A stretch of DNA of 6,563 bases from a virus (taxonomy: Duplodnaviria; Heunggongvirae; Uroviricota; Caudoviricetes): IMG/VR virus record IMGVR_UViG_2579778702_000004, positions 1 to 6,563 of that record. One strand, 5' to 3'. Under the pieces are notes generated by a model. It was given only the letters and a program-made list of their open reading frames with translations. It had not been told where the DNA came from and did not search any database. This document shows, in pieces, positions 5,085 through 5,514 of the stretch. The translations under genes and the position numbers were made by a program. How positions within the stretch are numbered: position 1 is the first letter of the stretch; each line of letters opens with the position of its first letter.

Positions 5085-5115
5085 CACAAATAAAAAAGCC
5101 TTCACTGCGGAAGGC
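5085..5115 (-). terminator. Rho-independent terminator after the small winged-helix-like ORF
   Basis: Minus-strand hairpin GCCTTC/GAAGGC (+ 5098-5115, 6-nt loop) followed by TTTTTTATTTG (complement of + 5085-5097). The ORF's TGA (5102-5104) lies inside the stem. Confidence 0.6.
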
Positions 5116-5299
5116 GTCTGTAACAACCGAACTGATAGTCTGCCAGACCCGCCATAACCAGCTGGGTCAGTATTAACTGGCAGCGTTCGCGTGAAAGGTA
5201 AGTATTCTGCGCAATCTCCCCGACTGTCGCCGGTTCGGTGACGCTTAATTCATTAAACACCACTCTGGCGGTTTCTGTCATATCCTGCTGTTTCAGCAT
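5102..5299 (-). CDS. Small (65-aa) putative winged-helix/HTH-like protein of unknown function
   Basis: ATG at 5297-5299 preceded by AAGGGA Shine-Dalgarno about 7 nt upstream (complement of ~5306-5311). Product MLKQQDMTETARVVFNELSVTEPATVGEIAQNTYLSRERCQLILTQLVMAGLADYQFGCYRRLPQ has the helix-turn-helix-like pattern of small wHTH regulators. The ORF-track start at 5392 is GTG with no Shine-Dalgarno and would overlap the upstream terminator region. Confidence 0.45.
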   Translation of the reverse strand: MLKQQDMTETARVVFNELSVTEPATVGEIAQNTYLSRERCQLILTQLVMAGLADYQFGCYRRLPQ

Positions 5300-5420
5300 G
5301 TCTTTTTCCCTTTTTCGGTTAACGTGACACACCAATAACTCTTGTCGAAAAAGCCAGCAAGCTGAAAGACAGGTATTCACCGCCACCAGCACGTTTACTG
5401 TACTGGACCGATTTCAGCCA

Positions 5421-5446
5421 TAAAAAAACCCGCTCGCGGCGGGTTT
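5421..5446 (-). terminator. Rho-independent terminator about 70-90 nt downstream of Q (candidate tR')
   Basis: Minus-strand hairpin AAACCCGC-CGCGA-GCGGGTTT (+ 5426-5446) followed immediately by TTTTATGG (complement of + 5418-5425), i.e. a GC stem plus U-tract. Confidence 0.6.
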
Positions 5447-5514
5447 AAGCTGTGTGGCGAAGTAACCACTCTTAACATACTGACATACTTTTTGCGGACC
5501 GCACTAATCATTTT
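5447..5514 (-). promoter_or_regulatory. Candidate late promoter pR' / Q-utilisation region (hexamers not confidently assigned)
   Basis: By analogy with lambdoid Q-pR'-tR' modules, the late promoter and qut should sit between the Q stop (5515) and the terminator at 5421-5446. Minus-strand candidates: -35-like TGATTA (complement of 5505-5510), 17-bp spacer, -10-like TATGTC (complement of 5482-5487). Both are weak matches. Confidence 0.25.

Follow-up and report, generated by a model that had tools for sequence, protein, structure and literature searches.

A small gene for a winged-helix protein, a structured RNA leader of about 140 nt and the gene for a DNA methyltransferase of the M.EcoGII type form a conserved three-part cassette, which in the DNA described here is joined to the late-operon control region of a lambdoid prophage. 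This DNA is a stretch of 6,563 nucleotides (positions 1 to 6,563 of the IMG/VR virus record IMGVR_UViG_2579778702_000004, Caudoviricetes), called the window below, and it represents the late region of that prophage; in the interval 5514-5102 the control region, composed of the antiterminator gene Q, its promoter and the first terminator, meets the cassette. The best explanation of the whole, with a probability of roughly 55%, is that a compact lambdoid late promoter and terminator (pR'/tR') precede a methylase cassette that brings its own accessory protein. The Q/pR'/tR' part is ordinary, and the combination of winged-helix protein, leader and M.EcoGII-type methylase appears to be undescribed. 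An earlier note on this DNA had listed Q, a first intrinsic terminator (T1), a 65-aa open reading frame (ORF) and a second terminator (T2) on the minus strand, and the ORF list, a terminator scan and a profile match place all four at the same positions (Table 1).

The comparisons described below are based on 34 loci from different species, each encoding a relative of the 65-aa ORF, and on a second set of 77 Escherichia coli phage contigs. The region itself is widespread, since the 431 nt that were studied are present in 2543 of 5426 complete E. coli genomes, at 5324 places in all. The same region also occurs in Stx2a and Stx2d phages, in phiP27 and in phage 1720a-02, with the same genes between Q and stx2.

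As judged from gene order, the small ORF travels with the methylase and not with Q. A homologous methyltransferase gene starts 134-153 nt after the ORF in 32 of the 34 species loci, from E. coli to Proteus and Plesiomonas, the two exceptions being a contig end and a decayed locus. The pairing is also found in every one of the 77 E. coli phage contigs, and ORFs that lack a leader or a methylase occur only in decayed loci. On the other side of the ORF, the type of Q and its distance vary freely, with 0.07 to 2.7 kb between Q and T1 among the relatives. Of the two roles that the earlier note had envisaged for the small protein, regulation of the methyltransferase or of cargo genes, a relation to the methyltransferase is thus borne out by synteny, and nothing was found in favour of the cargo genes. 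In an O157:H7 prophage (locus L002, 3388-3453) a frameshift disrupts the small ORF, the leader breaks off within its first helix (P1) and a gene with a helix-turn-helix (HTH) domain stands in place of the methylase, and in another locus (L020, 4168-4302) the ORF is truncated N-terminally and the methylase is gone, with the full leader left.

The methylase of the window is 95% identical to the enzyme of phage 1720a-02, contains the sequence FMGSGST and has the motif order of the beta class (DPPY ... FxGxG). According to the M.EcoGII study, the 1720a-02 enzyme is very similar to M.EcoGII, which methylates adenine regardless of sequence context; M.EcoGII stays silent in the lysogen, and its constitutive expression does harm (PMC5778455). 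Like M.EcoGII and M.EcoGI, the window enzyme, with 349 aa, is prophage-borne and of the beta class. The window copy differs in having Ala for the Asp of the catalytic motif: at codon 35 (4846-4848, minus strand) DPPY reads APPY (D35A), whereas each of the 113 other homologues examined has DPPY. The window copy is probably inactive, provided that the Ala codon does not stem from an error in sequencing.

The spacer between the small ORF and the methylase is the most conserved non-coding sequence of the region, with a mean pairwise identity of 0.77 against 0.45-0.51 at flanking third codon positions. When folded separately, three divergent sequences adopt one and the same arrangement of four helices (z-scores of -4.1, -2.7 and -3.6), and in an alignment of 27 sequences 95.2% of the cells are paired, with 11 pairs changed on both sides. 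None of 500 shuffles reached the observed values, and controls in which the structure was slid along the alignment were paired for only 27-46%. Double changes were found six and five times at two pairs of the long-range helix P2 and seven times in P3, and compensatory changes occur in P1 as well. In P2, GGUCACAAGC (5026-5018) is predicted, with covariation in its favour, to pair with the 10 nt that directly precede the methylase AUG at 4950, and no properly spaced Shine-Dalgarno sequence is visible at the methylase start. With a covariance model of the leader (R1), 37 of 38 sources each yield a single full-length match to the coding strand, scoring 105-166 bits; 10 of these loci had not been used for building the model. 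In L002 the model finds only a 33-bit fragment of P1.

The spacer does not appear to be coding, because its length varies by non-multiples of three and because the reading frame that starts at an invariant AUG (5080) ranges from 4 to 45 aa. A leader peptide from this AUG, which has no conserved frame, was therefore rejected. On the coding strand of the leader, Rfam 15 gave only partial matches at noise level (P26, 15.4 bits, E 1.5; MIR9772, 16.7 bits, E 4), and the best match, to P26 on the opposite strand, was discarded as sub-threshold (22.9 bits versus 36) and hairpin-driven. Elsewhere in the window, Rfam matched STnc100 and the tRNAs. A full-text search of a library of papers with sequence strings of the leader, of the conserved DNA block upstream of the ORF and of the pR' region gave no match. 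The leader is a well-supported and good candidate for a new family of cis-regulatory RNA elements.

The codon substitutions indicate that the 65-aa ORF is a real protein-coding gene. The median dN/dS is 0.215 over 214 pairs, and synonymous sites are saturated between genera; the window and locus L012 differ by 29 synonymous and 6 non-synonymous changes. The frame is intact in 77 of the 77 E. coli phage contigs that contain the gene, so that the conservation on which the earlier note had made its proposal depend was found, in the form of purifying selection. The good Shine-Dalgarno sequence that had been noticed is AAGGGA (5312-5307), 7 nt before the ATG at 5299. Longer versions of the protein, such as a 96-aa form from GTG 5392 and others of up to 106 aa, were rejected because their N-terminal extensions are unconserved and homologues align from M1.

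A structure predicted by AlphaFold2 from 37 sequences (pLDDT 92.6) is a canonical winged helix of the form H1-H2-H3-beta-hairpin. Its best matches among solved structures in Foldseek are OhrR/MarR and IclR, with a TM-score of about 0.8; further matches include the winged-helix domains of SAM-dependent O-methyltransferases and the activation domain of MotA, and among viral structures only unspecific similarity to winged helices in general was seen. In the O-methyltransferases, these domains are N-terminal and serve in dimerisation. The 65 aa correspond to the winged-helix domain alone, with no separate dimerisation or effector domain, and two cysteines are conserved in the family.

At the level of sequence the protein belongs to phrog_331 (E 1.4e-37), a group of unknown function. 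Matches in Pfam are below every cut-off (TrmB, 18 bits versus 25.6; MarR_2, 14.7 versus 27), there is no match in NCBIfam or PADLOC, and a PDB sequence search with the family profile yielded nothing meaningful. An exhaustive profile search of 1.84 billion representatives returned only 88 clusters, nearly all of them stand-alone proteins of 27-145 aa and not members of the TrmB or MarR families, and a search that started from the most divergent homologue, that of Plesiomonas, returned 3 relatives only. The label 'TrmB family' that PGAP gives to some homologues is superficial. Thus, of the earlier description of the product as a small winged-helix DNA-binding protein, for which a fold and profile search had been proposed, the fold stands by structural comparison, whereas no family profile exceeds a curated cut-off and DNA binding has become doubtful, as discussed below.

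Regarding the control region upstream, the Q protein matches PF06530 across the full profile (E 1.4e-52) as well as phrog_79, and its sequence resembles that of phage 21 Q, the structure of which has been solved (PDB 6p18/6jnx; E 7.5e-8). In a genome with a 100% identical copy of window positions 5090-5520, PGAP labels it 'antiterminator Q family protein'. The first terminator, which the earlier note had put 70-90 nt after Q, has a stem that starts 68 nt and a T-run that ends 95 nt after the Q stop codon, with a folding energy of -11.7 kcal/mol. A consensus scan finds 14 terminator-like sites in the window against 6.2 ± 3.0 in shuffles, and the z-scores of the short hairpins T1 and T2 are only -1.6 and -2.4. 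Since a single match of this kind is weak evidence by itself, the case for both terminators rests on conservation. A canonical terminator lies 85-150 nt before the ORF in 29 of the 34 species loci, with at least 8 unrelated stem sequences, and a terminator is present at the T1 position in all classes of E. coli late promoter that were seen.

When the 100 nt upstream of T1 are compared across loci, those with a PF06530-type Q, the window included, have a perfect palindrome of 8-12 bp, then several A in a row, the hexamer TAnnnT (for which the window has CAGTAT) and finally TGnTAAGAGTGG. The hexamer, 2 nt before TAAGAG, conforms to TAnnnT in 9 of 10 related loci. Palindrome and TAAGAG are 19 nt apart in the loci counted, with L007 at 18 nt, and this spacing holds even where Q lies 1.1-2.7 kb upstream. 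The type of palindrome tracks the Q clade, with six types at the same position in 11 loci: GCGGTCCGC is common to the window and L004, whose Q proteins are 74% identical; ACGCGTACGC to L016, L031, L035 and L036 (Q 56-83% identical); and TTCGTWACGAA to L007 and L027 (Q 63% identical), while L002, L003 and L055 have private types. Phage 82 Q is thought to bind its Q-binding element (QBE) as a dimer (PMC4914094), and a QBE generally lies between the -35 and -10 elements, that of phage 21 having two subsites centred near -21 and -13 (PMC6606751). The palindrome, matched to Q and physically attached to T1, behaves in the comparison as a QBE should and is therefore a candidate for this element. The second hexamer belongs to TGTTAAGAGTGG, a conserved extended -10-like element with a G-rich discriminator that can be likened to the pause element of the phage 82 pR', which consists of a -10-like hexamer, an extended -10 and a G/C discriminator (PMC5001585). 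The sequence (T)AAGAGTGG is similar to AACGATGGG of lambda, which lambda-type loci carry at the same place; these loci have an unmistakable lambda pR' (TTGAYT-17-TAAATT, N5/6, then AACGATGGG) at 25-45 nt before the terminator.

The proposal that T1 is the tR' of a very short pR' transcript, overridden by Q, is consistent with the Q-clade-specific palindrome and the tandem -10-like hexamers just upstream. Since the palindrome covaries with the Q clade and yet stays beside T1, as expected of a QBE, we accept T1 as very probably being tR'. The transcription start site of pR' would then probably lie between about 5482 and 5462, and the terminated RNA is predicted to be roughly 45-65 nt long. The approximately 30 nt between TAAGAG and T1 (GTGGTTACTTCGCCACACAGCTT, 5447-5477) are kept among E. 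coli prophages that differ in their Q-binding palindromes, so that the short pR' RNA, like StxS, might itself be functional.

Between T1 and the ORF lies a two-box DNA block, which in other genera reads CTTGCTG-N11-CCAGAGTTATCTGT, or, in other notations, CTTGCTG-N11-(C/A)AGAGTTAYNTGT and CTTGCTG-N11-cAAGAGTTATTGG. Across the 34 loci the boxes are near-invariant, and the spacer between them is unconserved but of fixed length. The architecture is that of a promoter (TTGCTG-17-TAYNTG), but only 6 of 12 positions match the sigma70 hexamers, there is a G at -7, and a promoter scan calls none. Because RNAalifold found no consensus RNA structure in the 5' leader of the 65-aa ORF, the block is read as a DNA signal. 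The consensus sequences of sigma54, sigmaE and sigma32, compared by eye, were rejected since spacing or key bases do not fit.

The second hairpin, T2 (-8.9 kcal/mol), does contain the stop codon of the ORF, as the earlier note had stated, with the TGA spanning the loop and the 3' arm. All Enterobacteriaceae-type loci retain the hairpin with altered arms, and the T-run is variable. The implied view of T2 as a universal part of the module could not be maintained: among the 34 loci, 15 pass the terminator rule with a good T-run, 11 have the hairpin without one, and T2 is absent from eight Proteus/Providencia loci.

In the explanation that we favour, pR' would be situated within the 68 bp between Q and T1 and would consist of the dyad-symmetric QBE GCGGTCCGC, the weak -10 element CAGTAT and then TGTTAAGAGTGG, which would hold sigma70 RNA polymerase for the loading of Q. 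In the absence of Q, the polymerase would stop at T1 and release the short RNA, and Q-modified polymerase would read through T1, T2 and everything beyond. The winged-helix protein, the leader and the M.EcoGII-type methylase would be one inherited unit. Because P2 pairs the start region and a properly spaced Shine-Dalgarno sequence is lacking, translation of the methylase may be off by default, even on read-through RNA, and the winged-helix protein would be the dedicated accessory factor of the cassette that sets methylase output. Most likely its effect is on expression, via the block and/or the leader, much as Com of phage Mu works on mom; that it targets the enzyme directly is less probable. 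T2 would add a further stop in the E. coli clade, relieved when the ORF is translated; since the stop codon lies inside T2, a terminating ribosome would cover the hairpin, and T2 may thus be sensitive to translation. The analysis itself establishes the anatomy and its conservation, the coding nature and fold of the protein, the RNA covariation, the synteny and the methylase family, from which the start site, the dependence on Q, the translational block and the part played by the protein are inferred.

A more specific idea, which is possible but rather doubtful, is that the 65-aa protein and the leader constitute an undescribed riboregulatory switch that licenses translation of the toxic methylase only during lytic growth. 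Such a switch can be envisaged in two versions that share this low likelihood. In one, the protein would bind the leader and open P2; in the other, the leader would be a new ligand- or enzyme-sensing element and the protein would sense methylated DNA, closing a feedback loop.

Several observations weigh against the favoured explanation. The 65-aa family is acidic, with a median pI of 5.1 and a net charge of -2 (range -1 to -6, the value of -6 being found in Providencia), which is unusual for a nucleic-acid binder and makes DNA binding uncertain. The only conserved basic positions are K3, R/K12 and R39, the wing is not conserved as basic, and neither an operator nor an RNA target of the protein was identified. 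For pR', the sigma70 consensus scan called no promoter in 5560-5447; the candidate has no -35 element, its CAGTAT is a plausible -10 but does not have the T at position 1, and a gap of just 2-3 nt separates the two -10-like hexamers, which in lambda and 82 stand further apart; start and pause site are therefore putative. The promoter-like block implies some Q-independent transcription, which a simple late-only scheme does not need, and T2 is specific to a clade, being absent from the Morganellaceae. Finally, the 5' arm of P1 contains the recombination sequence Chi (GCTGGTGG) and P4 is palindromic through its loop; part of the conservation of the leader could therefore act at the DNA level, and some DNA-level constraint is likely to exist as well.

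The alternative that survives best, although we consider it unlikely, is that the small protein does not bind nucleic acid at all and is a partner of the methylase (a subunit, chaperone or inhibitor) or of RNA polymerase, with the leader acting alone or sensing something else. This would agree with the acidity of the family and its few conserved basic residues, with a conserved helix 3 that is largely hydrophobic, with the matches to O-methyltransferase winged-helix domains and the MotA activation domain, with the strict synteny with the methylase and with a size of 65 aa that leaves no separate dimerisation domain. However, helix 3 also has the conserved polar residues R39, Q41, T45 and Q46, which fit a recognition helix, and the best fold matches are the DNA-binding proteins MarR/OhrR and IclR.

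It is improbable that the ORF is an autonomous moron, i.e. a transcription factor expressed in the lysogen from a promoter of its own (5361-5332) and terminated by T2, with targets in the host or prophage and adjacent to the methylase by co-inheritance only. The order of terminator, promoter-like block, gene and terminator is indeed the classic layout of such an element, the fixed spacing of the block and its lack of RNA structure are as expected for a promoter, and PGAP names homologues transcriptional regulators. On the other hand, every locus whose downstream DNA is available and undamaged has the methylase too, while Q differs in type and distance; T2 is missing in a whole clade, the block is a poor sigma70 match at 6/12 with G at -7, and the family is acidic.

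Still less probable is that T1 ends the early or Q operon, with the late promoter located elsewhere and the conserved sequence upstream of T1 being the 3' end of a small RNA (sRNA) or of the Q mRNA. The absence of a called canonical promoter would fit this, and so would the conservation of about 30 nt before T1 among E. coli variants with different palindromes, which resembles the body of an sRNA, and the weak Rfam matches at the T1 region. The latter, to isrK (18 bits, gathering score 50) and Trp_leader (21.6 bits), are sub-threshold and driven by the terminator hairpin, and the isrK match is no sign of homology. Moreover, the palindrome that covaries with the Q clade stays beside T1 and not beside Q, lambda-type loci have a clear lambda pR' (-35, -10 and AACGATGGG) in the same slot, and the scan shows no other late-promoter candidate between Q and the lysis genes in the window.

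Very improbable, lastly, is a conservation of the spacer that acts on DNA, through Chi and a palindromic methylase operator or promoter with the helices as by-products: the excess of Chi, which includes both arms of P1, the invariance of the P1 5' arm outside the Morganellaceae while the 3' arm drifts, and the always self-complementary centre of P4 (GCGC, ACGT or TGCA) speak for it, but not the compensatory changes in P1, P2 and P3, long-range pairs included, the collapse of pairing in the slid controls, or the Proteus-type P1, which keeps its hairpin with a completely different sequence and no Chi. The Chi sequence itself occurs at six sites in the window against 0.31 expected, a number reached by none of 200 shuffles; two of the sites are the two arms of P1 and another lies between T1 and the promoter-like block.

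It is useful to compare the compact pR'/tR' and the methylase cassette with known systems. The lambdoid late control regions of lambda, 82, 21 and 933W have in common with the window a Q gene and a close terminator, with lysis genes further downstream, and between the two a constitutive promoter region, a Q-specific element and a -10-like hexamer that recurs before a G-rich discriminator, the last three being candidates in the window. The arrangement described here differs in its extreme compactness, with 68 nt from the Q stop codon to the terminator stem and a predicted RNA much shorter than the 194 nt of lambda 6S RNA; furthermore, its QBE candidate is a perfect palindrome, and its hexamers are separated by 2-3 nt only. 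The pR'-tR' transcript of an Stx phage is 258 nt (StxS study). StxS and IsrK are experimentally studied short RNAs of the pR'-tR' class, IsrK being encoded in Gifsy-1 in the order antQ - isrK - orf45 - anrP. The likeness lies in a short terminated RNA just downstream of a Q-type gene and, in the case of Gifsy-1 IsrK, in a small ORF that comes next and in RNA folding that controls whether the gene after it is translated. In sequence, IsrK and the window are unrelated, the sub-threshold match arising from the terminator. Gifsy-1 orf45 is conserved in nucleotides and not in amino acids, whereas the small ORF of the window encodes a conserved folded protein, and the gated gene is here a methylase about 150 nt away, without translational coupling.

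In phage Mu, the small gene com lies immediately upstream of mom, a late and host-toxic DNA-modification gene with a translation start hidden within folded mRNA; com overlaps mom and encodes an RNA-binding protein of the zinc-finger type. The cassette resembles this system in having a small gene (about 62-65 aa in the two systems) before a toxic modification gene and in a start region that is part of a predicted mRNA structure (P2). It differs in that the small protein is an acidic winged helix with two cysteines and no zinc finger, and in the multi-helix leader of about 150 nt before the methylase. The C proteins of restriction-modification systems have the Xre-type HTH fold; their targets are C-boxes in front of the C gene itself, and their main role is the timing of the endonuclease gene. 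Common features are a small HTH-type protein encoded next to a methyltransferase gene and, ahead of the gene under control, a palindrome (P4), whereas in the cassette there is no endonuclease, the fold is another one, and the palindrome is embedded in an RNA structure that shows covariation.

M.EcoGII serves as a reagent for mapping chromatin and RNA. We found no published natural control mechanism for this enzyme, and its description mentions neither an upstream ORF nor a leader in the passages on 'upstream' or 'promoter' (PMC5778455). A conserved partner protein together with a structured leader offers a concrete and testable control mechanism for an M.EcoGII-type enzyme. The leader is present in about half of the complete E. 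coli genomes and absent from Rfam. In Stx2a, Stx2d and Stx2e phages of this class the module is situated between Q and stx2, and T1, T2 and the leader may therefore serve as the barriers against expression of the toxin genes in lysogens. A further StxS-like RNA may exist in the form of the short pR' RNA.

Table 1 Positions of the features discussed, all in window coordinates
Feature	Position	Strand	Remarks
Antiterminator Q gene, 126 aa	5515..5895	-	ATG at 5895, stop 5517-5515; PF06530 match
Palindrome GCGGTCCGC, 9 bp	5494..5502	-	followed by A5 (5493-5489); candidate QBE of pR'
Tandem -10-like hexamers	5466..5482	-	CAGTAT 5482-5477, TG-T-TAAGAG-TGG 5477-5466; candidate pR' -10 and sigma70-dependent pause element
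Intrinsic terminator T1	5419..5446	-	stem 5446-5426, 8 pairs (5 G-C), loop 5, then seven T; candidate tR'
Two-box DNA block	5332..5361	-	CTTGCTG 5361-5355, 17-bp spacer, TATTGG 5337-5332; conserved
65-aa winged-helix protein gene	5102..5299	-	ATG 5299, TGA 5104-5102; phrog_331; PGAP 'hypothetical' or 'TrmB family transcriptional regulator'
Hairpin/terminator T2	5088..5115	-	stem 5115-5098, 6 pairs (4 G-C), then TTTTTTATTT
Structured RNA leader, ~140 nt	4951..5088	-	conserved; four helices with covariation, between T2 and methylase AUG
Leader helix P1	5080-5063 with 5056-5034	-	structure prediction
Leader helix P2	5026-5018 with 4961-4952	-	structure prediction
Leader helix P3	5008-5002 with 4981-4975	-	structure prediction
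Leader helix P4	5000-4996 with 4989-4985	-	structure prediction
DNA methyltransferase gene, 349 aa	3901..4950	-	beta-class N6-adenine, M.EcoGII family; PF01555 E 7e-44
Chi sites	5383-5390, 5066-5073, 3027-3034, 6399-6406	-	
Chi sites	5045-5052, 6270-6277	+	

All genes of the window are on the minus strand, beginning with a DUF968/HNH-like gene (6500-5913), Q (5895-5515) and the interval studied, and continuing beyond the PF01555 methyltransferase (4950-3901) with three tRNA genes, an ORF of unknown function, a match to the STnc100 sRNA, a split esterase gene of the nanS-p type and a holin gene. The ORF of unknown function (118 aa, 3138-3494, minus strand) matches phrog_2873 (E 4e-70), with no match in Pfam, NCBIfam or PADLOC. 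The nanS-p-type sialate O-acetylesterase gene (641-2492, minus strand; DUF1737 and SASA, then DUF6645) consists of two overlapping ORFs, 1716-2492 and 641-1738, and is seemingly frameshifted in comparison with the single 'SASA family carbohydrate esterase' gene of an O157:H7 relative. The STnc100 match (2715-2905, minus strand) is strong, with 138 bits against a gathering score of 47 in Rfam, and ends in a terminator (2745-2726, minus strand) that stands back-to-back with one on the opposite strand (2686-2707). The tRNA genes, directly after the methylase (3602-3851, minus strand), have the anticodons CAT, TCG and TCT, the CAT gene being annotated as tRNA-Ile by PGAP in relatives, and represent the ileZ-argN-argO set that is typical of Stx-type phages.

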